The notes under the pieces: generated by a model
The model's database searches: none
Seen by the model: only the letters and a program-made list of their open reading frames with translations
Told to the model about the DNA's origin: nothing
Made by a program: the position numbers and the translations under genes
From: a virus
Taxonomy: Duplodnaviria > Heunggongvirae > Uroviricota > Caudoviricetes
Direction: 5' to 3' (one strand)
Virus record (IMG/VR): IMGVR_UViG_3300033074_002207
DNA: 23,492 nucleotides
Shown here: piece by piece, positions 1 through 16,438 of the stretch
Position numbering within the stretch: the stretch's first letter is position 1
How the letters are laid out: every line of letters begins with the position of its first letter

Positions 1-37
1 TCTGCCAGCCTAAGCAAAATTCGTTAAAGAGGATTTC

Positions 38-256: not shown

Positions 257-262
257 ATTCAT

Positions 263-303
263 GCCGATTGAGGGTAAAAGCTTGACACCCGATATCGGCT
301 CCA
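263..303 (+). ncRNA. 41-nt tRNA-like minihelix ending in TCCA (Thr-like acceptor)
   Basis: GCCGAT/ATCGGC stem then T-CCA, inner GGGT/ACCC hairpin; no T or D arm; packed between two tRNAs. Confidence 0.5.
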
Positions 304-306
304 AGC

Positions 307-382
307 GGGTCTATAGCTCAACGGCTAGAGCAATGCGTTGTCTGCGCAAAGGTTGCGGGTTCGAATCCCGTTAGGCTCGCCA
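307..382 (+). tRNA. tRNA-Asp(GTC)
   Basis: Acceptor GGGTCTA/TAGGCTC, G73, CCA; anticodon arm TGCG-TT-GTC-TG-CGCA (atypical T37). Confidence 0.88.
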
Positions 383-410
383 AAATTTTATAACGCTGAG
401 AGAAACAAGT

Positions 411-494
411 GGAGGTAGTCCGGCATGGACGAGGACATTGTTTTGAAAACAACTGGGCTGAAAGGCTTCACGAGTTCGATTCTCGTTGCCTCCG
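411..494 (+). tRNA. tRNA-Ser(TGA), no encoded CCA
   Basis: Acceptor GGAGGTA/TGCCTCC, G73, loop TT-TGA-AA, long variable arm, T arm ACGAG-TTCGATT-CTCGT. Confidence 0.85.
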
Positions 495-512
495 CTGGTT
501 TCTCTCTAAAAT

Positions 513-584
513 GCCGAGTGTTCCGAAGAACGACCGTCACTTGTAATGATAGTTTGAGGGGTTTGACTCCCCTACTCGGCTCCA
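513..584 (+). tRNA. tRNA-Thr(TGT), degenerate D arm
   Basis: Acceptor GCCGAGT/ACTCGGC, T-CCA, loop CT-TGT-AA, T arm AGGGG-TTTGACT-CCCCT. Confidence 0.75.
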
Positions 585-590
585 GTTTAT

Positions 591-670
591 GGCCTGTGGG
601 ACTGCATGGTGTGGTCGCTTCCCTGTCACGGAAGAGAGTCAGGAGGGTTCGATACCCTTACAGGTCGCCA
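591..670 (+). tRNA. tRNA-Asp(GTC)
   Basis: Acceptor GGCCTGT/ACAGGTC, G73, CCA; anticodon arm CTTCC-CT-GTC-AC-GGAAG. Confidence 0.9.
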
Positions 671-674
671 TTTT

Positions 675-707
675 TCCTCAATATACTCCTATGAAGTATA
701 TTGAGGA
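675..707. promoter_or_regulatory. Palindromic two-strand copy of the TCCTCA-N17-ATA motif
   Basis: TCCTCAATATACT...AGTATATTGAGGA inverted repeat; motif with exact 17-nt spacer reads on both strands. Confidence 0.6.
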
Positions 708-815
708 TACTCCAAGAAAGCAGGCACGCTAGAGACGTGATGTGATTGCTTTAAAAGACGAATAATGACCCGTTTCACGAATTCAAGTCATTATGAAGGC
801 GTCAACTTGGTGTAT
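707..815 (+). ncRNA. Candidate ~110-nt three-way-junction ncRNA
   Basis: Closing stem ATAC-T-CCAAG/CTTGG-T-GTAT; arms AAAGCA/TGCTTT with CACG/CGTG, and GACG+ATAATGAC/GTCATTAT+CGTC; begins at the predicted start site of the 675 motif. Confidence 0.5.
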
Positions 816-825
816 TTTTGTTTTT

Positions 826-910
826 GCGAGAGTGTCTCTAATGGTATGAGTGCAGGTTTCCACCCTGCTGCCTTTGCGCCTTGCGGGTTCGAGTCCCGTC
901 TCTCGCTCCA
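826..910 (+). tRNA. tRNA-Gly(TCC) with 14-nt variable region
   Basis: Acceptor GCGAGAG/CTCTCGC, T-CCA; anticodon arm GCAGG-TT-TCC-AC-CCTGC. Confidence 0.87.
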
Positions 911-913
911 AGT

Positions 914-1002
914 TTCTGAAGATTAGTATGGGCAAGGATAAATAGCAACTCCGTACCTGTACTACCAAAGGGGTTGCTACTGGATGGTAGGAGTCTTCAG
1001 AA
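914..1002 (+). ncRNA. Candidate pseudoknotted RNA in tRNA spacer
   Basis: P1 TTCTGAAGATT/AGTCTTCAGAA; P2 TAGCAACTCC/GGGGTTGCTA; loop CTACCA (962-967) complementary to TGGTAG (985-990). Confidence 0.5.
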
Positions 1003-1006
1003 TTAT

Positions 1007-1088
1007 GCCACCTTCGCATAATGGGATTGCACTTTCTTGGTAAGAAAGTCCTTCGGGGGAACGAGTTCGATTCTCGTAGGTGGCTCCA
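1007..1088 (+). tRNA. tRNA-Thr(GGT) with extended variable arm
   Basis: Acceptor GCCACCT/AGGTGGC, T-CCA; anticodon arm CTTTC-TT-GGT-AA-GAAAG; variable region TCCTTCGGGGGA. Confidence 0.87.
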
Positions 1089-1095
1089 GTTTTTT

Positions 1096-1124
1096 TTGAC
1101 ATTTCCAATATTTCGAGGTATAAT
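1096..1124 (+). promoter_or_regulatory. Consensus sigma70 promoter
   Basis: TTGACA (1096-1101), 17 nt, TATAAT (1119-1124). Confidence 0.85.
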
Positions 1125-1133
1125 ATTGGAGTT

Positions 1134-1502
1134 ATGTCTGATTCGATTCACACACCTGAAGAAAAGGCTGAAGCACTTGGCGGCTGTGGGCTGCTCATGA
1201 TTTTGATTGTTTTGGCTCCTTTTGCCACCTGGTGGCACGCATGGGTGACACTTACGATGTACAACTGGTTCATTTTACCATTTGTGGCAGGTGCTCCGGC
1301 TATGAGTATCATACCCTTTATTGGGTTGTCGAGTATTATGGGGATGTTCACCTATCATCTCGCAAATCTTGACAACACCAAGAAAGATGGCACTAAAATC
1401 AAGGCATCGGATATGTTCACAAAAGCTTTGACACGAATGTTTTTTTATCCGCTTGTTGCCCTTGGATTTGCTTGGGTGTATCAGTTCATTTTCATTCGTT
1501 AA
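1134..1502 (+). CDS. Hypothetical multi-pass membrane protein
   Basis: ATG 1134 lies after the sigma70 promoter and GGAG; the track start at 1080 is inside a tRNA; 3-4 hydrophobic segments. Confidence 0.8.
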   Translation: MSDSIHTPEEKAEALGGCGLLMILIVLAPFATWWHAWVTLTMYNWFILPFVAGAPAMSIIPFIGLSSIMGMFTYHLANLDNTKKDGTKIKASDMFTKALTRMFFYPLVALGFAWVYQFIFIR

Positions 1503-1509
1503 CATAAAT

Positions 1510-1586
1510 CGGTCTGTAGCTCAGTTGGTTAGAGCGTTGCCCTGTCACGGCAGAGGTCGCGGGTTCAAGTCCCGTCAGGCTGACCA
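1510..1586 (+). tRNA. tRNA with Asp anticodon (GTC) but Pro-like acceptor (C1-G72, A73)
   Basis: Acceptor CGGTCTG/CAGGCTG, A-CCA; anticodon arm TTGCC-CT-GTC-AC-GGCAG; canonical D and T arms. Confidence 0.9.
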
Positions 1587-1595
1587 GATTTAAAC

Positions 1596-1670
1596 GCGGG
1601 GTTGGTCTATTGGTTGTGGCCCTAGCCTTCCAAGCTTGAGAAAGGGGTTCGATTCCCCTACCCCGCTCCA
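1596..1670 (+). tRNA. tRNA-Gly(TCC)
   Basis: Acceptor GCGGGGT/ACCCCGC, T-CCA; loop CT-TCC-AA. Confidence 0.9.
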
Positions 1671-1675
1671 CTTTC

Positions 1676-1749
1676 GCGGCTGTATTTTAATGGTAGAATC
1701 TCTGCATGCCACGCAGAGGATGCGGGTTCGATTCCCGCCAGCCGCTCCA
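1676..1749 (+). tRNA. tRNA-Gly(GCC)
   Basis: Acceptor GCGGCTG/CAGCCGC, T-CCA; anticodon arm TCTGC-AT-GCC-AC-GCAGA. Confidence 0.92.
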
Positions 1750-1769
1750 GTTTATGGTATACTGGACGC

Positions 1770-2120
1770 ATGTCAGAACCAACATTGACAGGAACAAACT
1801 TTAAAGCACTTGCACATTTGCATCTGGGTACAATACCGGACTACAGCAGAAATGCAGAGCGTGCTTTGGTACTCTATCACTCTATTCATCTTGGTTTAGG
1901 GCACCCACAAGCAAAACTCAAGCGCGACATAAGCGAAACCATTGGTGCAATGACGATTTCTATTCCAAAAGGCACTGTTGTAAGATGCTTGTCATTCAAA
2001 AATGGATGGCGACGAAGGACTAATATTGAATTTCTCAACAAAGTACACGTGGTTGTACACGCAGACCATATGCCACACATCACTATGGCAGTCCCGTTGT
2101 CGATGTTAGAACCACTCTAA
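1770..2120 (+). CDS. Hypothetical protein, probably leaderless
   Basis: 116-aa ORF; TGG-TATACT extended -10 lies 6 nt before the ATG. Confidence 0.7.
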   Translation: MSEPTLTGTNFKALAHLHLGTIPDYSRNAERALVLYHSIHLGLGHPQAKLKRDISETIGAMTISIPKGTVVRCLSFKNGWRRRTNIEFLNKVHVVVHADHMPHITMAVPLSMLEPL

Positions 2121-2131
2121 GACTAGTCCTG

Positions 2132-2144
2132 GCCAGCCGCTCCA
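2132..2144 (+). repeat. 13-bp duplicate of the tRNA-Gly 3' end
   Basis: GCCAGCCGCTCCA identical to 1737-1749. Confidence 0.75.
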
Positions 2145-2248
2145 ATTTGAAAAATCCTCAAAATCAAATTCCGCCCCATAGAGAATCATGGCATCCGAGA
2201 GGGAAAGACAGAATTTCCTCAAATCGGTAGACCAGGAGATAAAAAACT

Positions 2249-2794
2249 ATGGCAGGAAAACGAAAAAACTTTCTTAACTACGCGGCGGCTCAAGCGTTCG
2301 TCGCCACTCTCGCTCTCACGTCCATGCAGGACTGGATTGCCTACTCGAAGGGTAAAGACCCGCAGGGTCGTACTCGACCGGAAGACATCCCGTCGAATCC
2401 GTGGACTGTCTACAAGGCTGAACTCACTGCGATGGGCAAGAAGTTCTCCATCAACGAGTTCATCGGGTGCAAGCTCCCTCGCAAGCCCCGAACGAAGAAG
2501 GCTGATGGCGCACCGAAGGCAACTCGCAAGCCGAAGGCTGATGCAGTTACCGTGACCGATGCTCCGGCTGATGTCCCTGTGGCGTCTCAGACTCCGTTCG
2601 AGATTGCGCGAACTGCGATTCAGGCTCTCAAGCTTCCGAATCGTGACGCCTTCTACGACCTGAAGCGCAAGAATATGCTTCCGGCTGGAGTTCCTCGCAA
2701 GCCCGAAGACACCTTTAAGGGTGAGTGGCAGGGTTGGGGCGACTTCCTCGGCAACGGCAACAAGCAGGTCGCCAAGAACACCGCTGACGCCTAA
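2249..2794 (+). CDS. Protein with two phage 'integrase repeat'-like units and a Lys/Ala/Pro-rich linker
   Basis: IPSNPWTVYK and LPAGVPRKPEDTFKGEWQGWGDFLG resemble the PxxPxxxYxxxWxGWxDFLG repeat; ATG 27 nt after TCCTCA. Confidence 0.75.
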   Translation: MAGKRKNFLNYAAAQAFVATLALTSMQDWIAYSKGKDPQGRTRPEDIPSNPWTVYKAELTAMGKKFSINEFIGCKLPRKPRTKKADGAPKATRKPKADAVTVTDAPADVPVASQTPFEIARTAIQALKLPNRDAFYDLKRKNMLPAGVPRKPEDTFKGEWQGWGDFLGNGNKQVAKNTADA

Positions 2795-2816
2795 AGAGCG
2801 CAAGCTCTCATGACTC

Positions 2817-2856
2817 GAAACGCAAGGGACAAAGGAATCCCTTGCGTTTCCAATTT
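2817..2856 (+). terminator. Hairpin, probable terminator
   Basis: 13-bp stem GAAACGCAAGGGA/TCCCTTGCGTTTC, weak T tail. Confidence 0.55.
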
Positions 2857-2888
2857 CCTCATTCACAAGGGTGATGGCATATAGAATC

Positions 2889-3053
2889 ATGGTTACAATC
2901 AAGGTTATGCTTGAACTCGAAGTGGAATGTCCCGAGGATATGGGCGCGGAAGAACTGGTGGACAAAATCATCATTAACGCCCATATTCCCAACCGACCCG
3001 ATATCGTTGTCAACGACTCCATTATCAATCTTGACTGGGAGGAGGAAGACTAA
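2889..3053 (+). CDS. Small acidic hypothetical protein
   Basis: ATG 2889 is 27 nt after TCCTCA 2856; MVTIKVMLELEVECP... Confidence 0.75.
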   Translation: MVTIKVMLELEVECPEDMGAEELVDKIIINAHIPNRPDIVVNDSIINLDWEEED

Positions 3054-3229
3054 TGGCGCGAAAAGTCACAATCGACGTGAAAGTACGACTGCACATTCGC
3101 GCAGATGACGACCAGAGTATTGACGAAGTGCTCCAGGAGATGGACTATAACTTCACAGCGAATGAAAGCACGGATGCTGACATCGAAGACACCGAAATTG
3201 TTGATTGGGAAATCTTGGACAGCAAGTAA
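3053..3229 (+). CDS. Small acidic hypothetical protein (58 aa, not in ORF track)
   Basis: TAATG coupling, GGAGG upstream; MARKVTIDVKVRLHIRADDDQSIDEVLQEMDYNF...DSK*. Confidence 0.75.
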   Translation: MARKVTIDVKVRLHIRADDDQSIDEVLQEMDYNFTANESTDADIEDTEIVDWEILDSK

Positions 3230-3278
3230 AAAGCCCATTCAATAAAACAAAATGTGTGGTATAATAACCGCACACAAC

Positions 3279-3354
3279 GCCGACTTAACTCAGTGGCCAG
3301 AGTGGCTGTTTTGTAAACAGCGAGTCAGGAGTTCGAATCTCCTAGTCGGCTCCA
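3279..3354 (+). tRNA. tRNA-Thr(TGT)
   Basis: Acceptor GCCGACT/AGTCGGC, T-CCA; anticodon arm GCTGT-TT-TGT-AA-ACAGC; TGG-TATAAT upstream at 3257-3265. Confidence 0.93.
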
Positions 3355-3364
3355 GTTTCATCAA

Positions 3365-3384
3365 GGAGAGTTGCCGGAGCGGTA
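3365..3384 (+). pseudogene. 5' fragment of a tRNA-Ser (acceptor strand plus D-arm start)
   Basis: GGAGAGT-TG-CCGGAGCGGTA; GGAGAGT pairs perfectly with ACTCTCC at 4038-4044. Confidence 0.7.
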
Positions 3385-3417
3385 GGTTGCCAGAGTTTCC
3401 ACGTAGAATATAACCTA

Positions 3418-3918
3418 GTGGAAACTTATCAACGAAAACCAAACAGCGTCTGTAAAGTGTGCGACAAGCCATTATACAGAAGACCTTCTGAAAAACAGAA
3501 AGGAAATGTCTTCTGTTCTAAGGCATGTTATGGACAATATCAGGCAAAACCAATTCCATGTGTAATATGTGGAAAGATGATTCTAACTAGCAAGAATAAA
3601 AAGACATGTAGCAGAGTATGCTCCAATATAAACCGCGCAGGAATTACATATCACAAACGCGGATATGGGGTGAAGTTTGCAAGTAGCAGCGCTACTCGAT
3701 TATATACTCTTCAACAACAGTTCAATTTTGATTCTTGCATGGTCGAAGGTTGTACATATTCAACCACGTATGATATTCACAGACATATTCCTGGAAAAAA
3801 TGATGGTCAATATGAGATTGGGAATATGTTTGCAATCTGCCCCAATCATCATGCTGAAGTTTCTCGTGGTATAATCAAGCTTGAAAAAATCTCAGATTGT
3901 TGTTTGAGAGTAGTTTGA
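3418..3918 (+). CDS. HNH homing endonuclease with N-terminal Cys-rich zinc-ribbon repeats
   Basis: CxxC...FCSxxC repeats; C-terminal YDIHRHIPG...GNMFAICPNHHAEV. Confidence 0.85.
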   Translation: METYQRKPNSVCKVCDKPLYRRPSEKQKGNVFCSKACYGQYQAKPIPCVICGKMILTSKNKKTCSRVCSNINRAGITYHKRGYGVKFASSSATRLYTLQQQFNFDSCMVEGCTYSTTYDIHRHIPGKNDGQYEIGNMFAICPNHHAEVSRGIIKLEKISDCCLRVV

Positions 3919-3920
3919 GC

Positions 3921-4002
3921 GGAGGATGACCAGTTGGCTCTGGAGCCTGTCTTGAAAACAGGTAGCACTGCAAGGTGTGGGGTTCGATGCCTCCATCCTC
4001 CG
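3921..4002 (+). tRNA. tRNA-Ser(TGA), apparently 8/4 fold, no encoded CCA
   Basis: Acceptor GGAGGATG/CATCCTCC (8 bp), T-stem GGGG/CCTC (4 bp), anticodon arm GCCTGT-CT-TGA-AA-ACAGGT, variable arm GCAC/GTGT. Confidence 0.85.
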
Positions 4003-4005
4003 CTC

Positions 4006-4048
4006 AGGCAGAGATGCTCCGTGGGTTCGAATCCCACACTCTCCTCCA
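4006..4048 (+). pseudogene. 3' fragment of a tRNA-Ser (variable arm, T arm, acceptor strand, TCCA)
   Basis: GGCA-GAGA-TGCT, GTGGG-TTCGAAT-CCCAC, ACTCTCC-T-CCA. Confidence 0.8.
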
Positions 4049-4070
4049 GATTTTGGGTATAATACCATTG

Positions 4071-4382
4071 ATGTTCACATACTTCGTTCAGATGCTCGCA
4101 ACCATGTTTAAAGTTTCACCAGAAGACTTGGTGTGGGCTCGTGAGACAATCGACAATGGACGCACGCTGTTGATAGCGTGGGGATATACAGAAGAAGGAG
4201 CCAAGGAAGCTCTATTCAGCCAACGACGTAAAACAGTCATTGTTCACCCCGATGGTTTGCTGAAGGTGATAATTTCCAATGACGTGGAAGTGATTCCTGA
4301 AGATGTGATTGAATGGGTGTCGAATCACATGGGCTTTCCAATGCCTGTCAAAGAATCCTCAAACACTCAATCGGAAGCATAA
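4071..4382 (+). CDS. Hypothetical protein, probably leaderless
   Basis: TATAAT at 4058-4063, ATG 4071; the track start overlaps tRNA sequence. Confidence 0.7.
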   Translation: MFTYFVQMLATMFKVSPEDLVWARETIDNGRTLLIAWGYTEEGAKEALFSQRRKTVIVHPDGLLKVIISNDVEVIPEDVIEWVSNHMGFPMPVKESSNTQSEA

Positions 4383-4388
4383 TAAAAC

Positions 4389-4835
4389 ATGGCTACTGAA
4401 ACACTCACGCCCAACGAAGTTTATCGGGGATATACAATCGTCACGATGGTTAACCCTGTTGGAGAAATCCGCATTTGCGATGGTGACGGAGAATATCTTG
4501 AGAGTGGTAGTAAGATTGCCACGTTCCTCTCTTATGACCACGCGAAGGGTTTCATTGATGGATGGATTCGCAATGGTGGCATCGACCTTGGTGTTCCGCG
4601 CCAACGAGTCGAGCTTGGCGAAAGCGGGATGAACTTCATTGTGAGCACTCCTGGTGGCGAAATTAGAGCGTTGTCTGTTGGCGACAAAGATTATCCATCT
4701 CTCGACATTATGGTAGAGGGACGTGTCGTCGCCTTTATTGAATGGCACCCCGACTCAAAGCAATTTAACCTTCATGTCTACAGCAAGGACAACGACGACG
4801 AACCCGTCTTTACACTCGAAGACATCACTAACTAA
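4389..4835 (+). CDS. Hypothetical protein
   Basis: 148-aa ORF; ATG 27 nt after TCCTCA 4356. Confidence 0.8.
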   Translation: MATETLTPNEVYRGYTIVTMVNPVGEIRICDGDGEYLESGSKIATFLSYDHAKGFIDGWIRNGGIDLGVPRQRVELGESGMNFIVSTPGGEIRALSVGDKDYPSLDIMVEGRVVAFIEWHPDSKQFNLHVYSKDNDDEPVFTLEDITN

Positions 4836-5035
4836 TGGAAGAGAACATTAACCCTCGTTGGCTCAAGTATTGTGAGGTGCATAACACCACGCTGGAGAAT
4901 GAGCAGAAGCTCTATCCGGGTGGTAGTATGACGGGCTTTACTCTCTGGATTCGTGAACAGCGCAACAAGTGGCTAGAGGCAAACAAGGGGTATTCTTGCG
5001 AAGCTGATTTCGACACCTTCTTAGGTATCGTTTAA
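4835..5035 (+). CDS. Hypothetical protein
   Basis: 66 aa, TAATG coupling to upstream ORF. Confidence 0.75.
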   Translation: MEENINPRWLKYCEVHNTTLENEQKLYPGGSMTGFTLWIREQRNKWLEANKGYSCEADFDTFLGIV

Positions 5036-5045
5036 ACAAGATTGT

Positions 5046-5068
5046 GGGCCTGTAGCTTAAGGGTGAAA
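5046..5068 (+). pseudogene. 5' fragment of a tRNA (Ile-like start GGGCCTG-TA-GCTT)
   Basis: GGGCCTGTAGCTTAAGGGTGAAA, then the sequence breaks off; no matching 3' half seen. Confidence 0.55.
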
Positions 5069-5089
5069 ACATAACCAAAGAGATTTAAT

Positions 5090-5174
5090 GGGCATGCTCC
5101 AGGGGTTGGTCGCCTGGGTCCGGCTCATAACCGGGTGCTTTATGCCGTCGTGGGTTCGATTCCCACCGTGCCCA
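5090..5174 (+). tRNA. tRNA-CAT (Ile2 or Met), 14-nt variable region, no encoded CCA
   Basis: Acceptor GGGCATG/CGTGCCC, A73; anticodon arm TCCGG-CT-CAT-AA-CCGGG; 5-bp D stem CCAGG/CCTGG. Confidence 0.82.
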
Positions 5175-5718
5175 TTAAATCAGGGTTGTGAATCTCAGCA
5201 TGACAGTTTTGGCAAAGTAACTGACATTTGTCTAGTTCTTGGTTTAACACCTCTTGACGGCGATTCGAAAAGGCTCTGATGTCTAAACCAAAACTTTTGT
5301 CTTTAGTGTGATGAAATACCAGTGCTGCCATATTTTTGTTATAACCGCACATTTCACAACACCCTCCTTTGGCTTGTATAGCTGCAAGCTTTCGATTTAA
5401 CCCTCTTGTTCGTTGTGACAAGGTGTTATTTCTGTTGTTAGAGGTATCACAACATTTTGAACAGTATTTCTGGAATCTTGTGTTTGTTATATCGGCTTCA
5501 CAAATAATACAAGATTTTTGATTTTTAGTAAATCTTCTCTCATGCCCATGTCTGCGATTCACTGGAACATTAGCAGCATCTAGTGCATTATTCCAAGAAC
5601 CAAAAGTTCTTTTTGCTGAATTTTTTATACTTACATCTAAAGCTCTAGGCGAAACACCGTGTTTATAATAATATTGTTGAATAATATCTATGATTTCAAG
5701 CTGCCTTTTTGTAAACAT
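5140..5718 (-). CDS. HNH endonuclease with N-terminal homing-endonuclease-associated repeat
   Basis: RTFGSWNNALDAAN repeat; CEMCGYNKNMAALVFHH...ELDKCQLLCQNCHAEIH; minus-strand TATAAT 8 nt before ATG. Confidence 0.85.
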   Translation of the reverse strand: MFTKRQLEIIDIIQQYYYKHGVSPRALDVSIKNSAKRTFGSWNNALDAANVPVNRRHGHERRFTKNQKSCIICEADITNTRFQKYCSKCCDTSNNRNNTLSQRTRGLNRKLAAIQAKGGCCEMCGYNKNMAALVFHHTKDKSFGLDIRAFSNRRQEVLNQELDKCQLLCQNCHAEIHNPDLMGTVGIEPTTA

Positions 5719-5801
5719 AATGAATCATTATACAAAAATGAGCTTTAAACCTCTTTTATTTATGAATATCTTCATAAATAAAAGGTATCATATAATCACA
5801 T

Positions 5802-5896
5802 GCCCGCATAGCTCAATGGCAGAGCAGCACGCTTATAACGTGTATTAGCCCCAGATTAGGGTGAGGTTGAGGGTTCGAGTCCCTCTGCGGGTACCA
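5802..5896 (+). tRNA. tRNA-Ile(TAT) with 25-nt variable-region insertion
   Basis: Acceptor GCCCGCA/TGCGGGT, A-CCA; anticodon arm GCACG-CT-TAT-AA-CGTGT. Confidence 0.85.
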
Positions 5897-5934
5897 TTTT
5901 TCCTCAATAGTCCGTTTTTGAGGATATCATAAAC

Positions 5935-6034
5935 GGGTACGAAGTTCAAAGGCGGGTGACACACGTGGGAATCTCGCGGTCAGAACAGCTAGTGGTCTAG
6001 AAGGTTGCAGGTTAAAATCCTGCCGTGCCCGCCA
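5935..6034 (+). ncRNA. 100-nt tRNA-like RNA with 35-nt D-loop and non-functional anticodon arm
   Basis: Acceptor GGGTACG/CGTGCCC, G-CCA; D stem GTTC/GAAC; CTAG-TGGT-CTAG; T arm GCAGG-TTAAAAT-CCTGC. Confidence 0.7.
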
Positions 6035-6134
6035 ATTTCCCTTAGTTGTTCTCGAAAACAACGAAATGTCGCCTGGTTGTTCTGAAAAACGGACGCTTTC
6101 CTCAAAATCTTAAAGAGAAGTGTAGAATTAGCAC

Positions 6135-6317
6135 ATGGCTCGATACGTGATGAAATCAGAAGCTGGTAAAGGATGGCGCATATGGAACAATCATATGCGT
6201 CGATGGTGGGGAAACTGGTTTCCAACACAACCAGACGAGCTTGTTGAAGAACTTAATGGGAAAAAACGACCAGATGTTCTTGTTGCATTAACTAAGAAGT
6301 ATCAGCAAAAACGATAA
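6135..6317 (+). CDS. Small basic Trp-rich hypothetical protein
   Basis: 60 aa; variant motif TCCTCA 6099 and TAGAAT 6 nt before ATG. Confidence 0.7.
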   Translation: MARYVMKSEAGKGWRIWNNHMRRWWGNWFPTQPDELVEELNGKKRPDVLVALTKKYQQKR

Positions 6318-6682
6318 TGGCTAGCGACATCGAAGTCTATCTCAAGTATCAGAATCAGGATGTACGCTATCCTGAGACTCGCACAGCATTCCTTATGGAG
6401 CTTGAGCCCCTAGTTGTGGGTGAGAAGGTGGTGCATTACAACTATGCCCATAAACCCACCGTTTACAGCATCCTCTCACTCGATGACGTGTTTGACCACG
6501 ATGGCTATGAGCAAGAAGAGGGCACGCCAGAAGTCTACTTCAAAGACACCCACTTTATGTATGGTGTCCCTGGTCGATATGTCGTTGCTACACTGCATTA
6601 TTTCACTCCTGCGAAGAAATTAGAAAGATTTAAGGTAGTGAAGCTACTCATCACAGAAAATGGCTTAGAACGAACATGTTAG
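6317..6682 (+). CDS. Hypothetical protein
   Basis: 121 aa, TAATG coupling. Confidence 0.75.
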   Translation: MASDIEVYLKYQNQDVRYPETRTAFLMELEPLVVGEKVVHYNYAHKPTVYSILSLDDVFDHDGYEQEEGTPEVYFKDTHFMYGVPGRYVVATLHYFTPAKKLERFKVVKLLITENGLERTC

Positions 6683-6833
6683 TCATTTTTCAAAAAAGCA
6701 GAATTATTTCTTGTATTTGACACCCGATATTAAGGCTTAATCAATTACTAAGTAATTGAAGAGCAATTACGTAAATTGTTCAAATCAGTTTTTCGGGTAG
6801 ATAAATTCGTTTTGTATGGATATAATTCCAATT

Positions 6834-6921
6834 GGAGAGTAAACCAGGCTGAGCTTGGAACTGTTTCGAAAACAGATTGGACTATAAAAGGTTTAGGGTT
6901 TGATTCCCTTGCTCTCCTCCA
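6834..6921 (+). tRNA. tRNA-Ser(CGA)
   Basis: Acceptor GGAGAGT/GCTCTCC, T-CCA; CTGT-TT-CGA-AA-ACAG; long variable arm; TATAAT at 6821. Confidence 0.85.
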
Positions 6922-6940
6922 GAATTTGTATAACTATATC

Positions 6941-7153
6941 ATGGCTAAGATATGGTTGCCCAAAGGTGTGAAATGGAACTTCTATTATCGAACTCAGGAA
7001 GAATTCGATAATGAGTGTGCTAATTTAATATATCATCATGGTAATCCGATATTCGAGATGCCTTGGCCGAACAAAAGAATATTCAAGGTTTTTCGAGATA
7101 AGCACGATAATCAAATAGAGATAGATTTCATACCTACGACAATTGGAGGGTAA
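6941..7153 (+). CDS. Hypothetical protein; stop codon inside the next tRNA
   Basis: ATG 6941 after TG-TATAAC; MAKIWLPKGVKW...GG*. Confidence 0.65.
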   Translation: MAKIWLPKGVKWNFYYRTQEEFDNECANLIYHHGNPIFEMPWPNKRIFKVFRDKHDNQIEIDFIPTTIGG

Positions 7154-7233
7154 TCCCAAACGGTGATGGGGTACGCCTGGAAAGCGCTACGAGCGGGAAG
7201 CCGCTTACGGTTCAATTCCGTTGCCTTCCTCCA
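7145..7233 (+). tRNA. tRNA-Ser(GGA)
   Basis: Acceptor GGAGGGT/GCCTTCC, T-CCA; CGC-CT-GGA-AA-GCG; variable arm GAGCGG-GAAG-CCGCTT. Confidence 0.83.
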
Positions 7234-7254
7234 GAATTTATGGTACAATATATC

Positions 7255-7362
7255 ATGTATCCAAACAACTATAAATACATACACTATGCTTTTATATTCG
7301 CAGGTGTTTGTTTTATCATTGTCCAGATTTGTGTGATGATAGCTATGATTTGTTTCAGATAA
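7255..7362 (+). CDS. 35-aa single-TM peptide (not in ORF track)
   Basis: TGG-TACAAT just upstream; MYPNNYKYIHYAFIFAGVCFIIVQICVMIAMICFR*. Confidence 0.5.
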   Translation: MYPNNYKYIHYAFIFAGVCFIIVQICVMIAMICFR

Positions 7363-7446
7363 GAATTCGGTGTAAGTCCTCTGACATGGCTCTCCAGGGC
7401 TATATGTTATGGTGAACACCAGTGGAGTCGTCTATATCCGGTGGGA

Positions 7447-7842
7447 TTAGACTGGGGGAGAAGAGATAACTGGAGAAAAGGCTTCTCCCTCCCACGAATC
7501 CTCATCGAAGAGAGAAGCCTCATCATCCTTATCTTGAGCAAGCATTTGAAGCTGCTTGCGAGTCTTTTCGTAATCCTTATAGCCGGAGCAAAGGAAGCAC
7601 GAACAATTTCGAAGATGCTTAGCGACACGCTTGGCGTTATTAAGAACATCTTGTCGATGTTCGTCTTGGTGTTGGAAGCGTTCCTCGTTAGTTTCCAGAT
7701 AGACTTTATCGTGAAGCCAACGATTGAACTTAAAGGAGTCGTCATCCCAACCCCACTGATACCAATAGACATTGAAAGCATGTTGAATTGCTTTCTCACG
7801 ACGATGGCGACGAATCGCCCGCTTCATGTTTTTAGTTTGCAT
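7447..7842 (-). CDS. Hypothetical protein with Arg-rich N-terminus and CSCxxC motif
   Basis: GAGGT SD upstream; KRAIRRHRREK...NCSCFLCSG; acidic tail. Confidence 0.75.
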   Translation of the reverse strand: MQTKNMKRAIRRHRREKAIQHAFNVYWYQWGWDDDSFKFNRWLHDKVYLETNEERFQHQDEHRQDVLNNAKRVAKHLRNCSCFLCSGYKDYEKTRKQLQMLAQDKDDEASLFDEDSWEGEAFSPVISSPPV

Positions 7843-7857
7843 TCTGACCTCTGTATA

Positions 7858-7946
7858 GCCACAGCAAACTTATCTCGTCAGACTAGATAAATTTGCTATG
7901 GCATGATACGGAGTCCAGTGATTCTTACCATTGTTAGAAACATCAT
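7858..7946 (-). promoter_or_regulatory. Candidate leader-peptide attenuator (16-codon uORF plus 18-bp hairpin)
   Basis: uORF 7946-7896 MMFLTMVRITGLRIMP*; its stop lies in the 5' arm of hairpin 7902-7858, which pairs fully only on the minus strand (2 G-U). Confidence 0.6.
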
Positions 7947-8025
7947 ATTCATTATACTCAAAGATTTATTGATATGAGGAATTTTTCCTTTTTCCTCAAT
8001 CCTGGCCGCATGCTCATACATTTGA

Positions 8026-8145
8026 TGAACTTGAGAGGGTGTCACACCAGGGATGCATCAGGTCGGCACTGTTTGAAGTAGTAACACACCTACTGAGATG
8101 AGAAGCTCAGCAAGGCTCGAAAGTAAATCCAGAAACTCAGGTTCA
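8026..8145 (+). ncRNA. Candidate ~120-nt ncRNA
   Basis: Starts at the predicted start site of motif 7993; 10-bp end-to-end stem TGAACTTGAG/CTCAGGTTCA; inner CTGAG/CTCAG. Confidence 0.5.
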
Positions 8146-8182
8146 AAATTCCTCATTTTGAGTCTATGATTGATATACAATC

Positions 8183-8473
8183 ATGGACAAACTGTATGAT
8201 TCAATGCCTTGTCTGACGAAGACTAAGGAACTCCGATTTGAAGTTACTGGGACAATCGCAGTCCCAAAAGAAGCCACTTTACTCTATGACGCATGGGGCG
8301 GGATTCGAGGCTATGAGATTCAGGGACGAGAGGTAAGTCTAGTTCTTGGATTGGAAGTCACCACGGATGGAATCAAATACGAATATCTGACTGGTGACGG
8401 TGAGATGGGACAACAGGTTGGGAGTCAAGTTCTCAACTATGACGTGACGAGTTTGTCTGAGGAGGATAACTAA
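8183..8473 (+). CDS. Hypothetical protein
   Basis: 96 aa; ATG 27 nt after TCCTCA 8150. Confidence 0.8.
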   Translation: MDKLYDSMPCLTKTKELRFEVTGTIAVPKEATLLYDAWGGIRGYEIQGREVSLVLGLEVTTDGIKYEYLTGDGEMGQQVGSQVLNYDVTSLSEEDN

Positions 8474-8916
8474 TGCCAAAGTTTCTTGTGACACATTATC
8501 TCGACGCGACTTCGATGACGGCAGAGAATGTCGTTGAAGCTGACACGCCGGAAGAGGCACAGGAAAAAGCCGCTGACCTTGTTCGTAGTCAATGGGATAT
8601 TTCGAGTTGGCTCGGTGGAAGTTTTGAAATCACTCTTGGAGATGTTGAGAAGACGGACGATTCATCAGAAGATGCTGGTGGTAAAAGTCCGCTCATGCAA
8701 CTTGAAGAAATTGCGCGAAAGAATCAGGACATCCTGAACGAGTACAATCAAGCCGGAAGAGAAGATGATTTTCGAGCGGCTGACTACGACGACTATGAAA
8801 AGCAAAGTCGAGAAGAACTGCGCCAGAATCTTCTACTTGCTTTCATCAGTCTTCTCAAGAGCGGAAGTTTCAATCCTGAAGAATTCCAAGTTGAAGAGTT
8901 AAAATATGGAGGGTAA
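8473..8916 (+). CDS. Acidic hypothetical protein; stop codon inside the next tRNA
   Basis: GAGGAGG SD and TAATG coupling; N-terminal MPKFLV...VVEADTPEEA module. Confidence 0.8.
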   Translation: MPKFLVTHYLDATSMTAENVVEADTPEEAQEKAADLVRSQWDISSWLGGSFEITLGDVEKTDDSSEDAGGKSPLMQLEEIARKNQDILNEYNQAGREDDFRAADYDDYEKQSREELRQNLLLAFISLLKSGSFNPEEFQVEELKYGG

Positions 8917-8997
8917 TCCCTGACGGTGAGGGGGTGCGCCTGCTAAGCGTCACGGGCTGAAATATTGCTTGCGGTTCAATTCCGCTGCCCTCCTCCA
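8908..8997 (+). tRNA. tRNA-Ser(GCT)
   Basis: Acceptor GGAGGGT/GCCCTCC, T-CCA; GCGC-CT-GCT-AA-GCGT; long variable arm. Confidence 0.85.
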
Positions 8998-9056
8998 GAA
9001 TTTATATCCAGCTTAGGTAGACAAAATCACTCTAAGTTGGATATAATAAACTATCT

Positions 9057-9147
9057 GGAGAGTAAACCCGTCTGGCGTGCGCGGCGTTGTTTGCTAAACA
9101 ATTGGGACTCGAAAGGGTCTGCGGTTCGAGTCCGCTGCTCTCCTCCA
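9057..9147 (+). tRNA. tRNA-Ser(GCT)
   Basis: Acceptor GGAGAGT/GCTCTCC, T-CCA; GTTGT-TT-GCT-AA-ACAAT; variable arm GGACTC-GAAA-GGGTCT; TATAAT at 9042. Confidence 0.87.
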
Positions 9148-9203
9148 TTTTTTGGAATATTCATAAAGGTGCTAAATAAGCAAATGTTGAATATTCCAAT
9201 ATT

Positions 9204-9704
9204 ATGAGAAAGCCAAATTGTTCTTGTCTTCGCTGTGACAAACCGATTTATCGTCGTCCATATCAGTTAGAAGGTGGTAATGTCTATTGTTCTAAATCAT
9301 GCTATCGAGCAGGTAATATTAGAACATCGAAATCGTGCCAAGAGTGTGGTAGTGTTTTTCAACCAAAAAACACTGGTCAAATTTATTGTTCTAAAAAATG
9401 TGCTACTACAAAAATTAGACGCGAGAGCTTTTGGTCTACATCAAAAGCATATGAAAAACACAACAAAACAAAGAGAAGATTGGCACAACTTGAACAAAAT
9501 TTTGGTTTTACATCTTGTATGGTCGAAGGTTGTACATATTCAACCACGTATGACATTCATAGATATATACCCGGTAATCAGGGTGGAGAATATGAAATAG
9601 GAAATATGTTTGCGATATGTCCCAACCATCATGCTGAAGTCACACGTAATATTATTGAGTTTGAAAAAGTCAGTGATTGTATTCTGAGAGTGCTAAAGAA
9701 GTGA
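9204..9704 (+). CDS. HNH homing endonuclease, paralog of 3418-3918
   Basis: Same length (166 aa); SCMVEGCTYSTTYDIHR...YEIGNMFAICPNHHAEV shared. Confidence 0.85.
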   Translation: MRKPNCSCLRCDKPIYRRPYQLEGGNVYCSKSCYRAGNIRTSKSCQECGSVFQPKNTGQIYCSKKCATTKIRRESFWSTSKAYEKHNKTKRRLAQLEQNFGFTSCMVEGCTYSTTYDIHRYIPGNQGGEYEIGNMFAICPNHHAEVTRNIIEFEKVSDCILRVLKK

Positions 9705-9747
9705 GCGTGAAAGCGCTCCGTGGGTTCGAATCCCACCCGCTCCTCCA
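9691..9747 (+). pseudogene. 3' half of a tRNA-Ser, probably (GCT)
   Basis: T-GCT-AA-AGAAG, variable arm GAGCGT-GAAA-GCGCTC, T arm GTGGG-TTCGAAT-CCCAC, CCGCTCC-T-CCA; overlaps the HNH stop. Confidence 0.75.
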
Positions 9748-9760
9748 GAATTTCATAAGA

Positions 9761-9788
9761 ACGGGGCTGTTCTGAGCCCCGTTTTTTT
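9761..9788 (+). terminator. Rho-independent terminator
   Basis: ACGGGGCT/AGCCCCGT stem plus T tract. Confidence 0.85.
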
Positions 9789-9876
9789 GTGTAAGGCTTT
9801 CGTCTTAGCATGTTAAACCGCATGCTAAATTATTCGTCTATACATATGGAAAATAAAAATAGGAGGAAATAGACAA

Positions 9877-10104
9877 ATGGATTTTGTAAAGAGACAAAAT
9901 GAAATCATCGAAGAGATGATGAATGGCGCAGAGTTGGTATCGCGCCCAGGCCGTTTCGGCGGCTACCGTCGAGACTGGTACCTGGTCGATGGCAAGAACG
10001 AACGACCACTAGGCATCGACATGATTAACCTGTTGGTGTCATCGGGTGTCATTCGAATCGACGGTCATCGTGCTATTTTGTTGAAAGAACTCGCCTCGGC
10101 GTAA
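9877..10104 (+). CDS. Hypothetical protein
   Basis: 75 aa; strong SD AGGAGG at 9861. Confidence 0.8.
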   Translation: MDFVKRQNEIIEEMMNGAELVSRPGRFGGYRRDWYLVDGKNERPLGIDMINLLVSSGVIRIDGHRAILLKELASA

Positions 10105-10140
10105 TTTTTCCTCAAAATAGAAAAGCATGGTATAATAGAA

Positions 10141-10715
10141 ATGTCGGAAGGGAAAGCCCCCGTGAGATTTAACTCTCGCAAAAATACATCTTTAGCGGGA
10201 TGGAAAGGCTCCTAGAGGTAGCGTCTAGGCTGACAGTCAAATCGTGCGCACGAAATGACACCAGGTATGGGCTGGATGCAAGCCCGAATATGAGAAGTGT
10301 AAGCAACGACATCACTCACCTGGAAAATTGAACTGGGGAGGGCACCGACGAATCGTCCCCTTGGATGAAGGCGGAACGCTTAACCCCAGTTCAGTTAAGG
10401 TTTGGGGAAACCCATTAACGTTGTAGATGTGACCGGAACACTGACAACGAGAAAGCAGTGCAGTTTTAGAATAAGGCTGGATAAAAACACTGGGGTAAGA
10501 GCCCTCATTTACTCAGGAATCTGTAACTCCGTGAAGGAGTCTGACGAGACGAATGGAAGGATTGTACAGTCCCCGGTAGTCGAAACAGATAGACGGAACG
10601 GCGCGTGTGGAATTGACTGTGCTAAACACGCGAGTAAGGTAACAGTCTGCGGAACCGCTGGATGGTCATAAGGCGAATTCTTAAGATTATTGACTAAGCG
10701 CTTAATCTTGTCGGT
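10141..10715 (+). ncRNA. Candidate large (~575 nt) multi-domain structured ncRNA; 3' end approximate
   Basis: TCCTCA 10109 plus TGG-TATAAT promoter; >15 short helices, including TGTCGG/CTGACA, CCAGGT/ACCTGG, 13-bp AATTGAACTGGGG/CCCCAGTTCAGTT and long-range GTGACC/GGTCAT; no credible ORF. Confidence 0.7.
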
Positions 10716-10800
10716 TGTTTCCTTTCATGGGAACATTCTCCTTGGCTCTGGGAGAGGGTGTTGCTGTTGCTAACATTTGTGGCCCTCTCCCTTCTTTTCT

Positions 10801-11100
10801 ATGAGAACACTATCTCTAAAGAAATATCACAAAAAAGTAGCGGGAAGCTCGAAAGACCCGTGTGTTTTTTGTTCTGCTCCAGCCGTCACCATCGACCACA
10901 TCACTCCCTTGTCGAAAGGCGGACACATGCGAGATTTACAAAACTTGGCTCCCATGTGTTATAAATGTAACAACAACAAAGGCGATTTGTCGATTCTATT
11001 AGCTTTGGCAACACACCCGCAGTTGAAGCGACGGATTAAATACAACATCCAAACCTTCAACAATCAAACCAAACGCAGAAAAAACGCCGCTGTCGCATAG
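10801..11100 (+). CDS. Small HNH endonuclease; stop codon inside the next tRNA
   Basis: CVFC...TIDHITPLSKGG...NLAPMCYKCNNNKG. Confidence 0.85.
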   Translation: MRTLSLKKYHKKVAGSSKDPCVFCSAPAVTIDHITPLSKGGHMRDLQNLAPMCYKCNNNKGDLSILLALATHPQLKRRIKYNIQTFNNQTKRRKNAAVA

Positions 11101-11170
11101 TGGTCAATTGCAGCACTTTCGTAAAGTGATTCCTTTGGATACGCAGGTTCGAATCCTGTCAGCGGCTCCA
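11086..11170 (+). tRNA. tRNA-Thr(CGT) with extended variable arm
   Basis: Acceptor GCCGCTG/CAGCGGC, T-CCA; CACT-TT-CGT-AA-AGTG; variable region TTCCTTTGGATAC. Confidence 0.87.
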
Positions 11171-11205
11171 ATTCCTCATTTCGCACGCCATTCGAATATT
11201 AAACT

Positions 11206-11484
11206 ATGACACAGGCGATGACATGGGCTGTACTCCGGGAATTCTGGCTAGAATATGGCAGTATTGTTCCTTCGAAAGTCCAGGATAACATCAAGGAACT
11301 GTTGGAGTTCTTCAAGCCTAACTATGTTGATGACACCAATCTTGGTGACTCGGGATATGTCTACTTCATTGACGGAAGCACTATCCTTTACGACTGGGAT
11401 GAAGGACATTTCGAATGTGAAGGGCGTAGGCTACAATACCCCTACGACAAAGATGACCCGCTTTTCTGGAAGTCTGACAGCTAA
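11206..11484 (+). CDS. Hypothetical protein
   Basis: 92 aa; ATG 27 nt after TCCTCA 11173. Confidence 0.8.
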   Translation: MTQAMTWAVLREFWLEYGSIVPSKVQDNIKELLEFFKPNYVDDTNLGDSGYVYFIDGSTILYDWDEGHFECEGRRLQYPYDKDDPLFWKSDS

Positions 11485-11547
11485 GCACGCATACAATATA
11501 AAGGGGCTTTAATATCCTCATTTGAACCTGATTCGGCATATATAATC

Positions 11548-11736
11548 ATGCCGAAGTTCAAAGTATTTATCACCGCGATGGCTGTGGTTTCTCAGTCACA
11601 AATCGTAGAGGCGGACGACATGGAATCTGCCCGCGCTCTTGCTGTTAAGCCCGAGACCTATAACAATGGAACTTGGGATTACTGCGGGGTTGAAGACGAC
11701 ACCGTTCAATGCGACGAAGTTGAGGGAGGATACTAA
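11548..11736 (+). CDS. Small acidic hypothetical protein
   Basis: MPKFKVFI...IVEADDMESA; ATG 27 nt after TCCTCA 11515. Confidence 0.8.
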   Translation: MPKFKVFITAMAVVSQSQIVEADDMESARALAVKPETYNNGTWDYCGVEDDTVQCDEVEGGY

Positions 11737-12038
11737 TGGTAAAAATCAAACCAGACAGACAGGATGTCAAGGATATTCTTTATGCTGTGAAATGTGCAGT
11801 CGATTGGCAGAAGGATTACAAAGTTCAAGTAGTAGGACTTAACTCTCATGGCAGGATTGCATGGTATCAAGGCTTTAGTGCCGTTCGAGAATATCGAGTC
11901 ATACCTCTTGCTGTTTACACCACTACCAGACATGGCATCAAGACAGAATATGAAGGTATTGTTGCCAATGACCCCAAACTCTTCGCGCAGTTTGAAGAGG
12001 CGATGAGGGTGGCGATGCTAAATTCCTCAAAAACGTAG
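11736..12038 (+). CDS. Hypothetical protein
   Basis: GGAGG SD and TAATG coupling. Confidence 0.78.
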   Translation: MVKIKPDRQDVKDILYAVKCAVDWQKDYKVQVVGLNSHGRIAWYQGFSAVREYRVIPLAVYTTTRHGIKTEYEGIVANDPKLFAQFEEAMRVAMLNSSKT

Positions 12039-15130: not shown

Positions 15131-16438
15131 ATGGCAGTAATCGAAAAATGGCGTGGCATTTGTGCCAATCTTGCAAACAACAATAACAAGTTCTGGGAAA
15201 TCGAACTTCACGACAATCACGATGTTATCACCCGTTGGGGACGCATCGCAGAAGAGGGCAAAGCCCAATCCAAGATTTTTGCAGGTAGGGGTCGTTCTTT
15301 CTTTGAGCAGAAGATTCACGAGAAGAAGAACAAGTCCAATCCTGACGAGCGATACACCGAAGCGCGAACTCTTGATTCGGTGGGTACTGGCGGTCAATCT
15401 CGCGTCGTTCAATCATCAAATCTTGTCGAAATCGCCAAGCGCGAAATCAACTCAAACTCTGCTGATACTATTCAGTTGATTGAGCGTCTTGCTAACGCAA
15501 ACATTCACAATATCACTTCTCAAACGACTATGACTTATAACAAGGTTACTGGTCTGTTTGAAACTCCGCTCGGAATCGTTACGGCTGATGCTATCGTTGA
15601 AGCCCGTGATTGGCTCCGACAAATCGGTGACTTGGTGGCTGTCAACGACTTTGGAAATCGTGACTTTCCGAACGCAATCAATCAGTATATGCGTTTGATT
15701 CCCTCTGACTTTGGTCGTCGGCGTCTGGAACCACAAGACATTTTCCCTGACCTAACGGCTGTCCGCAACCAGAACGATATTCTGGACTCGCTAGACGGTA
15801 GTTTGCAGATGGTGCTGACGGCTCCTCCGACCACTGGTGATGCTCCTAAGCAACCCAAGTTGTTTGAGACTACTTTGCACCTTTGCAACGACGGTAAGGT
15901 ATATGACAAGATTAAGAAGATGTATGATGCAACTCGTCAAAGTATGCACGCTTCTTCAAAGTTGAATATCCACAAGATTTATGAAGTGGAGATTGCAACA
16001 ATGGATACGGCTTTCCGTCAGTATGGCTTAAAGGTTGGAAACGTCAAGTCGCTTTGGCACGGTACTCGTATCGGCAACTTGCTTTCGATTATGAAGGGTG
16101 GCTTTGTTATTCCGCCGTCGAACGCTGGTCACTGTACGGGTCGTATGTTCGGTAACGGTGTGTACTTCTCTGACCAGTCTACGAAGTCCCTGAACTATGC
16201 TATGGGCTATGCTCCGGGGCAACGTGGTGGCGCGTCTTATGACTGCTTTATGTTCGTCAATGACGTTGCTATGGGCAAGGAATATATTCCCTCCGGTCCG
16301 AACTCAAGCCTCGACCCTCGCAAGATGGGATACGATTCCACTTTTGCTCAGGCGAACCGCTCAGGCGTGATGAACAATGAGATGATTGTTTATGCAACAA
16401 CTCAAATCAATCCGCGCTATCTTGTGGAGTTCAAGTAA
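15131..16438 (+). CDS. WGR-domain poly(ADP-ribose) polymerase-like protein (WGR, regulatory and catalytic domains)
   Basis: NNNKFWEIEL...TRWGRI; LWHGT, GRMFGNGVYFSDQSTKSLNY, NNEMIVY giving the H-Y-E triad; AGGA SD. Confidence 0.92.
   Translation: MAVIEKWRGICANLANNNNKFWEIELHDNHDVITRWGRIAEEGKAQSKIFAGRGRSFFEQKIHEKKNKSNPDERYTEARTLDSVGTGGQSRVVQSSNLVEIAKREINSNSADTIQLIERLANANIHNITSQTTMTYNKVTGLFETPLGIVTADAIVEARDWLRQIGDLVAVNDFGNRDFPNAINQYMRLIPSDFGRRRLEPQDIFPDLTAVRNQNDILDSLDGSLQMVLTAPPTTGDAPKQPKLFETTLHLCNDGKVYDKIKKMYDATRQSMHASSKLNIHKIYEVEIATMDTAFRQYGLKVGNVKSLWHGTRIGNLLSIMKGGFVIPPSNAGHCTGRMFGNGVYFSDQSTKSLNYAMGYAPGQRGGASYDCFMFVNDVAMGKEYIPSGPNSSLDPRKMGYDSTFAQANRSGVMNNEMIVYATTQINPRYLVEFK

Follow-up and report, generated by a model that had tools for sequence, protein, structure and literature searches.

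To our knowledge, the job of most bacterial and phage hammerhead ribozymes is unproven, and we know of no function for the large phage RNAs found near tRNA genes. Hammerheads that flank phage genes are described, in the accessible part of PMC3088659, as cutting both in vitro and in E. coli. The cleavage triplet GUA is natural and active in hammerheads (PMC1636495, in the portion available), and the available portion of PMC2632901 describes a loop-loop motif made of a 5′ U of loop 1 and a 3′ A of loop 2. Another phage non-coding RNA, the pseudo-ToxI of phage PhiTE, mimics a host antitoxin (PMC3475682, in the part at hand). In what is accessible of this literature, no hammerhead inside a large phage tRNA-island RNA was found, and the alignments of PMC3088659 and PMC5737381 may hold such a subtype.

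The locus considered here lies in a stretch of 23,492 nt of viral DNA (Caudoviricetes), the whole of which is called the window. Sixteen tRNA genes are found inside positions 1-11170 (ARAGORN), and the window also encodes HNH nucleases, a DNA glycosylase and a PARP (Pfam), besides short orphan ORFs. Complete phage records of 345-476 kb contain relatives of the PARP, at 36-46% identity, so the source is probably a jumbo phage. The sequencing runs containing the stretch carry labels that are mostly sludge, wastewater or freshwater, and by these word shares only, the phage, probably a large one, likely lives in sludge. At least half of the words of the stretch occur in 14 DNA runs. Of 52 loci from a metagenome scan, two (L178 and L195) are homologous to this locus beyond the ribozyme described below.

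Between 10105 and 10776 there is a gap of 672 nt that is free of ORFs and tRNAs. It is the longest in the curated gene list of the window (the runner-up has 340 nt), in agreement with a preliminary description, made from the letters alone, that had picked out this region as the longest one lacking a credible gene. The 89-codon ORF within it (10402..10671, + strand) was already doubted there and is judged no gene: it is frameshifted in L178, has lost its start in L195, has no Pfam match and gave one near-identical match only in a database search. Downstream come an HNH endonuclease ORF (10777..11100, + strand; Pfam HNH, E 1e-9) and tRNA-Thr(CGU) (11086..11170, + strand; ARAGORN), with which the RNA precursor described below likely ends. 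The HNH ORF is missing from the corresponding place in L178, where the RNA continues directly into tRNA-Thr.

Several other elements of the window are recorded here for their own sake. A WGR-PARP-type ADP-ribosyltransferase and a GHKL ATPase are seen at 15131-16438 and 21167-22792, amid small phage genes. Two related 166-codon ORFs (3365-4050 and 9150-9748; 78% DNA identity over 203 nt) each have an inverted repeat before them and an orphan 3′ part of tRNA-Ser after them, and at the 3365 copy the matching 5′ acceptor strand precedes the ORF; these units look like nuclease cassettes invading tRNA genes. More tRNA-like elements with a T-arm and CCA-like ends, uncalled by ARAGORN, lie at 388-600, 5935-6031 and 7144-7231. 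Downstream of a TCCTCA site, 8020-8150 is another structured RNA uncalled by ARAGORN and Rfam. With a T-loop-like hairpin and CCA at its end, the homolog in L178 (2330-2450, - strand) suggests that this may be an enlarged tRNA-like RNA.

On balance, we lean towards reading the gap as a modular non-coding precursor whose leader is cut off by a hammerhead, leaving a 3′ decoy or scaffold RNA of about 220-270 nt to accumulate. A promoter-like site would give rise to a precursor of exchangeable RNA modules that runs from about 10142 towards tRNA-Thr, and a type III hammerhead would cut it after A10525 in the infected cell, removing a 5′ leader that varies among strains. A 5′-hydroxyl and the stem-I hairpin, which starts at the first base, would protect the 3′ product, while the leader would decay. 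Both a 5′-hydroxyl and a 5′ hairpin slow decay that depends on the 5′ end, and the 3′ product would therefore accumulate as a hairpin-capped, pseudoknot-like and conserved RNA, its 3′ end set by a stem at 10750-10791 or by tRNA 5′ processing. During infection, this RNA may then work as a decoy or scaffold; this role is the weakest step and is drawn by analogy with pseudo-ToxI and with ROOL and GOLLD.

The promoter-like site (10109..10136, + strand) consists of a TCCTCA box at 10109 and an extended -10 box, TGGTATAAT, at 10128, from which transcription would start at about 10142-10144. TCCTCA occurs 26 times on the + strand of the window and 6 times on the - strand, and it stands exactly 27 nt upstream of an ATG in 17 of the 26 sites and 26-28 nt upstream in 22. 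A strongly strand-biased two-box motif is seen, TCCTCA and an ATA-rich box separated by 16 nt (for example, at 2155, 8150, 11515, 16915 and 20094), and it looks like a phage-specific promoter for leaderless mRNAs. With a matrix trained on the 17 sites, the 10109 site ranks 23 of 23,432 positions, due to its TCCTCA half only, and both of its boxes are retained in L178 and L195; the promoter proposed earlier (TCCTCA plus TGG-TATAAT) is reasonable on these grounds. Over 10141-11085, there is no TCCTCA or GGTATAAT site, and the top matrix score is 2.6, at 11054. Given no further promoter motif up to tRNA-Thr, the precursor is read as continuing towards that gene. An internal promoter of the phage's own class at 10502, which would mimic the contig starts described below, was rejected for its poor matrix rank (702). 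As a separate observation, 10141-10215 is a 24-codon ORF with its ATG at the inferred transcription start, and in L178 an unrelated frame of 19 codons opens with TTG equally far from the promoter, maybe by chance.

The extent given earlier for the structured element, 10141-10715, stands as a structured non-coding region, but structure reaches to about 10800, and a hammerhead inside it (10519..10590, + strand) had been overlooked. As read from the sequence, stem III pairs 10519-24 with 10585-90, the triplet GUA occupies 10523-25, stem I pairs 10526-30 with 10536-40, the core CUGACGA lies at 10541-47, stem II pairs 10548-50 with 10579-81 and bears a 28-nt extension, and GAAA follows at 10582-85, all on the + strand. 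All hammerhead core bases are thus present. We take CUGACGA, GAAA and GUA to be C3-U4-G5-A6-N7-G8-A9, G12-A13-A14-A15.1 and U16.1/H17 in the consensus numbering, and the consensus places the cut after A10525 (predicted self-cleavage site 10525..10526, + strand). Applied to the window and 19 phage loci together, a type III descriptor matched once, and it matched none of 3000 shuffles of the stretch; the match has stems of 5, 3 and 6 pairs, of which I and II are closed and III is open, and a G10.1-C11.1 pair.

Rfam RF00008 (Hammerhead_3) gave a full-model match at 10518-10591 with a 106-nt query (27.3 bits, E 2.2e-4, cut-off 48.5). The score lies below the cut-off, with a loop II of 28 nt here versus 10 in the model, and that threshold belongs to the library and is not biochemical. 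Standard Rfam scans miss hammerheads with a long stem II. In predicted folding, the isolated 73 nt adopts the hammerhead fold. In the full transcript, stem III has a probability of 0.00-0.04 in a nearest-neighbour model that leaves out tertiary contacts, and the penalty for imposing the hammerhead fold is 2.4-3.6 kcal/mol for the window, 2.7-4.0 for L195, 0.8-2.6 for L178 and 1.1-2.3 for L047, a viral contig with a distant copy. Compared with L047, stems I, III and distal II show three double-sided changes (18 of 500 shuffles score as high), a shallow comparison of two sequence types. Loop I, GUGAA, has its U second and not first, loop II ends in GUA, and both are retained in L047; the loops roughly fit the U/A motif in the available portion of PMC2632901. 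By sequence, fold and covariation, the element is a type III hammerhead, and its self-cutting is predicted. Elsewhere, 43 distinct type III hammerhead-like matches with GUA were seen in viral and metagenome contigs (loci L049-L219), mostly right before ORFs and many with long stem II extensions.

The modules around the ribozyme have been exchanged. In L195, 10141-10396 has 1 change in 256 positions, 10419-10723 has 2 in 305, and 70 nt replace 10397-10418. In L178, 10140-10418 is replaced by an unrelated 126 nt, and 10419-10723 is retained. The distant hammerhead copy, in the IMG/VR contig L033/L047, is 76% identical over 72 nt. It belongs to an array of about 2.2 kb without a credible ORF (L047:715-2923) that ends at tRNA-Pro in a 62-kb viral contig and has no Rfam match besides tRNA. 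Only 1 of 12 modules, the hammerhead, aligns to this array. The array itself is hairpin-rich, with tRNA-like pieces and the same extended type III hammerhead; a 13-mer that it has in common with the L178 5′ block is not significant (p about 0.22) and was set aside.

Wider searches added little to these relatives. A blastn search of 50,697 phage records gave nothing beyond L178, L195 and the L033/L047 hammerhead. Pattern scans of IMG/VR gave 1 related locus of 46, then 1 locus and 1 of 13 (both on the same contig), and 0 of 11 and 0 of 60, and a further scan had none related among 120 listed of about 920 stretches. A GTDB scan returned 1 locus, not a hammerhead. No homolog was seen at 19 loci in PARP neighbourhoods or in neighbourhoods of the upstream ORF, and 5 complete large-phage records gave nothing by DNA or RF00008 search. 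A covariance model (R1) found only its 3 training sequences among 88 sources and matched 0 of 20 records, a set without a positive control genome. In the collections searched, then, no distant homologs were found save for the hammerhead.

Comparison with known RNA families was likewise negative. No Rfam match was obtained in the stretch at the gathering score or up to E 10, chance-level rows aside; since the longer Rfam queries missed the hammerhead, the other Rfam blanks prove less. The locus does have traits of ROOL, GOLLD and OLE, namely a phage tRNA neighbourhood and a size of 500-900 nt (the gap measures 672 nt). The earlier suspicion that it is none of ROOL, GOLLD, OLE, RNase P, tmRNA or an intron is borne out by the lack of an Rfam match at the gathering score or up to E 10. 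For RNase P, tmRNA and group I/II introns, neither Rfam nor loose patterns for their hallmark motifs (P4 strands, T-arm with CCA end, P7 strands, domain V) gave a match in 10141-10810. Apparent tmRNA matches at 9700-9774 are really the 3′ half of a tRNA. Theta (HDV-like), twister, pistol and hatchet ribozymes had no match in Rfam, which missed the hammerhead until given the 106-nt query, and core patterns for HDV, twister and pistol were not found. Type III antitoxin RNAs are tandem 35-60-nt pseudoknot repeats that come with a cognate toxin. No such 35-60-nt tandem repeat occurs among the 20 largest of 54 repeat families in 1-12000, and Rfam gave no antitoxin match. Likenesses noticed by eye to RNase P loops, the c-di-GMP riboswitch, twister sister and tmRNA pseudoknots were dropped for want of Rfam support, as was a likeness to Cas13b repeats.

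The alternative nearest to the preliminary description, which we regard as unlikely, is one integrated, ornate RNA of the ROOL or GOLLD kind, variable at its 5′ side and conserved at its 3′ side, into which the hammerhead is inserted, either shut or nicking paired halves, and which self-assembles through palindromic loops. The region had been called tiled with helices, and all of 100 shuffles do fold less well than 10141-10715 as a whole (z -3.24). However, the signal is uneven (z -4.4 at 10326-10416, -1.1 at 10417-10518 and -0.25 at 10592-10717), and adjacent coding stretches reach similarly low values (z -3.5 at 9880-10000 and -2.1 at 10000-10120). The motifs named earlier do exist where they had been placed, on the 5′ side (TGTCGG 10142 with CTGACA 10230, CCAGGT 10261 with ACCTGG 10318, and the 13-bp stem 10326-38/10384-96) as well as on the 3′ side (GTGACC 10429 with GGTCAT 10664, CGCGTGT 10602 with ACACGCG 10626, GACTGT 10615, and ACAGTC at 10566 and 10642). 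The architecture drawn from them does not hold up. The long-range helix of GTGACC and GGTCAT has a pair probability of 0.0, no helix links the ends of 10141-10715, and the closing helix of domain 1 is unstable (probability 0.00-0.04 in 5 of 6 prefixes, 0.60 in one). The predicted folding is that of a variable 5′ block (10141..10418, + strand) of hairpins and multistem domains (10142-10235, 10236-10259, 10261-10323, 10326-10396 and 10403-10414), the last four with pair probabilities of 0.76-0.99. Conserved hairpins follow before the cut (10419..10518, + strand; 10419-49, 10461-79 and 10493-10504), retained in L178 and L195 with 2-3 changes, and the pair probability of 10461-79 is high too.

In favour of an integrated RNA, palindromes of six bases occupy the predicted tips of three hairpins (10245, 10563 and 10680), and the one at 10563 becomes a different palindrome in L047, but the closing pair of the hairpin explains this switch equally well. 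An integrated RNA would also suit a conserved block that begins 100 nt before the cut and an upstream sequence that competes with stem III in the folding model. Against it, an internal hammerhead is predicted to cut after 10525, no Rfam match was found, one relative with a 90% identical neighbouring gene has 126 nt of unrelated sequence in place of the whole 5′ block (279 nt), and the 5′ part is missing from the RNA contigs, which are post-cut only among the matches listed. The stretch is therefore real and structured but probably not one ornate 575-nt RNA. This is a caution that other calls of a "large ornate RNA" may be strings of exchangeable modules.

Returning to the cut precursor, the part behind the predicted cut has features of its own. 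A candidate H-type pseudoknot, A (10602..10647, + strand), would pair 10602-08 with 10626-32 and 10615-20 with 10642-47. It is the pseudoknot proposed earlier with ACAGTC at 10642, and both of its proposed helices are invariant, the three changes of L178 (1 deletion, 2 substitutions) falling in the linker; however, 9 shuffles in 1000 of 10592-10720, and 11 in 150 of the whole stretch, also contain a pseudoknot of 7+6 bp. A candidate compact domain follows (10653..10716, + strand; 10653-58/10711-16, 10664-69/10690-95 and 10677-80/10685-88), with a possible pseudoknot B inside it (10671-75/10699-10703, + strand). Within 10648-10720, 4 of 6 changes in L178 restore or strengthen pairs of this local domain, none of them double-sided, and these changes favour the local fold of GGTCAT over its long-range partner. 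The energy gain from them is not significant, as 21% of random mutants match it, and the minimum-energy fold of 10653-10716 in the window itself is in another register. Over 10594-10720, no double-sided changes are seen among the window, L178 and L195, and there is no covariation outside the hammerhead.

Last comes a 3′ hairpin with a closing stem, 10750-59/10782-91 (10716..10791, + strand; z -3.9), which is terminator-like in the window. The outer stem 10750-91 is retained in L178 around a new interior and leads straight into tRNA-Thr. That interior is worth recording separately: the pre-tRNA-Thr stem of L178 (1270-1345, - strand) encloses a pseudoknot-like element of 5+5 bp that is absent from the window and present in X18, one of the RNA-labelled runs. 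If functional, the 3′ RNA would be one that no catalogued family covers.

Sequence of the 3′ piece also turns up in RNA libraries. Four of six RNA-labelled runs (X16, X17, X18 and X20), chosen for containing part of 10000-10900, were examined. Contigs of X17, X18 and X20 together cover 10536..10759, the strand not being given by the contigs: X17 has 10543-10741 at a depth of 27.6 with no mismatch, X18 has 10536-10759 at a depth of 2.2 and then continues for 28 letters in the L178 form, and X20 has 10545-10706 at a depth of 2.6. In all three, which come from three studies, the match starts with the first or second base of the contig, 10-19 nt past the predicted cut, and the depth over 9771-10511 is zero among the matches listed. 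Assembled DNA, by comparison, spans the predicted cut site in L178 and L195. The contigs disagree at their 3′ ends (10706, 10741 and beyond 10759), and X16 instead covers 10673-10861, reading into the HNH ORF. As these contigs lack strand, true end and level, they give a weak hint of support for cleavage. Apart from this, X16 has one 352-nt contig (depth 10) that matches only the 10417-10460 hairpin, with 5 mismatches in 44 nt, and this may be a distant copy of the hairpin module in another context.

Quite unlikely, in our judgment, is that the hammerhead is mere punctuation on a pre-tRNA transcript, the rest being a patchwork of captured and decayed hairpins whose 3′ piece lingers without a job. 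Precedent exists, since phage hammerheads have been proposed to split long transcripts into units (accessible part of PMC3088659) and theta ribozymes to trim the trailers of phage tRNAs (PMC10879173, in the portion available). A jobless remnant would also fit a 3′ domain with no distant homolog in the collections searched and a 10653-10716 segment that pairs less well in the window than in L178. However, cleavage 560 nt ahead of the tRNA could not make the tRNA end, and the 3′ block is the only part of 1.7 kb to appear in three RNA libraries, among the matches listed and with tRNA-arm cross-matches aside. Conservation points the same way: the 3′ block of L178 has 13 changes in 305 positions (none in the 110 of 10481-10590) compared to 24 in 228 in the upstream ORF, a gene 90% identical (Fisher p 0.006). 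This p is soft because L178 and L195 share one assembly prefix, and are thus not independent samples, and because the locus is mosaic, two flanking ORFs of L195 differing from the window at 1 of 228 and at 47 of 501 positions, so the low divergence may reflect recent exchange, as the punctuation reading would have it.

That the hammerhead stabilises a message, of the 10402-10671 ORF or of the HNH gene, is very improbable: an ATG ORF of at least 60 codons does lie within 100 nt, right behind the ribozyme, in 29 of the 42 distinct type III hammerhead-like matches with at least 250 nt behind them (1 of 43 was dropped for too little flank), and one X16 contig, beginning at 10673, extends into the HNH ORF, but such an ORF is absent for the window and L047, the cut would fall inside the 89-codon ORF, which belongs to no family and carries a frameshift in L178, and L178 keeps the RNA without an HNH gene at that place. 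In L178 the hammerhead is followed by an ORF at 101 nt that runs through tRNA-Thr.

For the cut precursor with its accumulating 3′ RNA, the best single guess at a function is that the RNA is a structural decoy for an RNA-binding defence protein of the host, which it would bind, a tentative idea that is more likely wrong than right. A bolder proposal, and an unlikely one, is that the locus founds a class of ribozyme-matured RNA cassettes in the tRNA islands of jumbo phages, built from plug-and-play modules, in which a portable extended hammerhead, present as well in the non-coding array of the unrelated phage L047, would release a pseudoknotted, palindrome-assembling and protein-free counter-defence decoy. 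A hammerhead and a hint of RNA from the field now meet at one locus, where it can be tested whether ribozymes mature phage small RNAs.

With pseudo-ToxI, the likeness is one of analogy only, as the present RNA has candidate pseudoknots and strain-variable modules, no tandem repeat and no Rfam antitoxin match. Theta (HDV-like) ribozymes, as described in the available portion of PMC10879173, are like this element a self-cleaving type of RNA in a phage tRNA region, the cutting here being predicted. They sit at the 3′ trailer of a tRNA, whereas the present ribozyme has the hammerhead fold and lies 560 nt 5′ of the tRNA. The likeness to GOLLD and ROOL, as far as the accessible parts of PMC5737381 and PMC12286853 describe them, extends to precursor size, a phage tRNA island, candidate pseudoknots and palindromic loops, and, for GOLLD, to a variable 5′ and a conserved 3′ part. 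Unlike GOLLD and ROOL, the present locus has no match to their models, no long-range fold backed by covariation, an internal ribozyme, a 5′ part exchanged wholesale among close relatives, and a narrow distribution in the collections searched.

The closest relatives remain the type III hammerheads of RF00008 and the phage hammerheads in the accessible part of PMC3088659, with which the element has in common the core, three stems, an open stem III, a GUA triplet and a phage setting; the processing of transcripts is the likely role in both. It differs from the known phage hammerheads in its stem II, which is extended by 28 nt and has an internal loop and a hairpin tipped by GUAC, and in its place inside a gene-free stretch of 670 nt, where what follows the ribozyme is not an ORF but a non-coding RNA and a tRNA.
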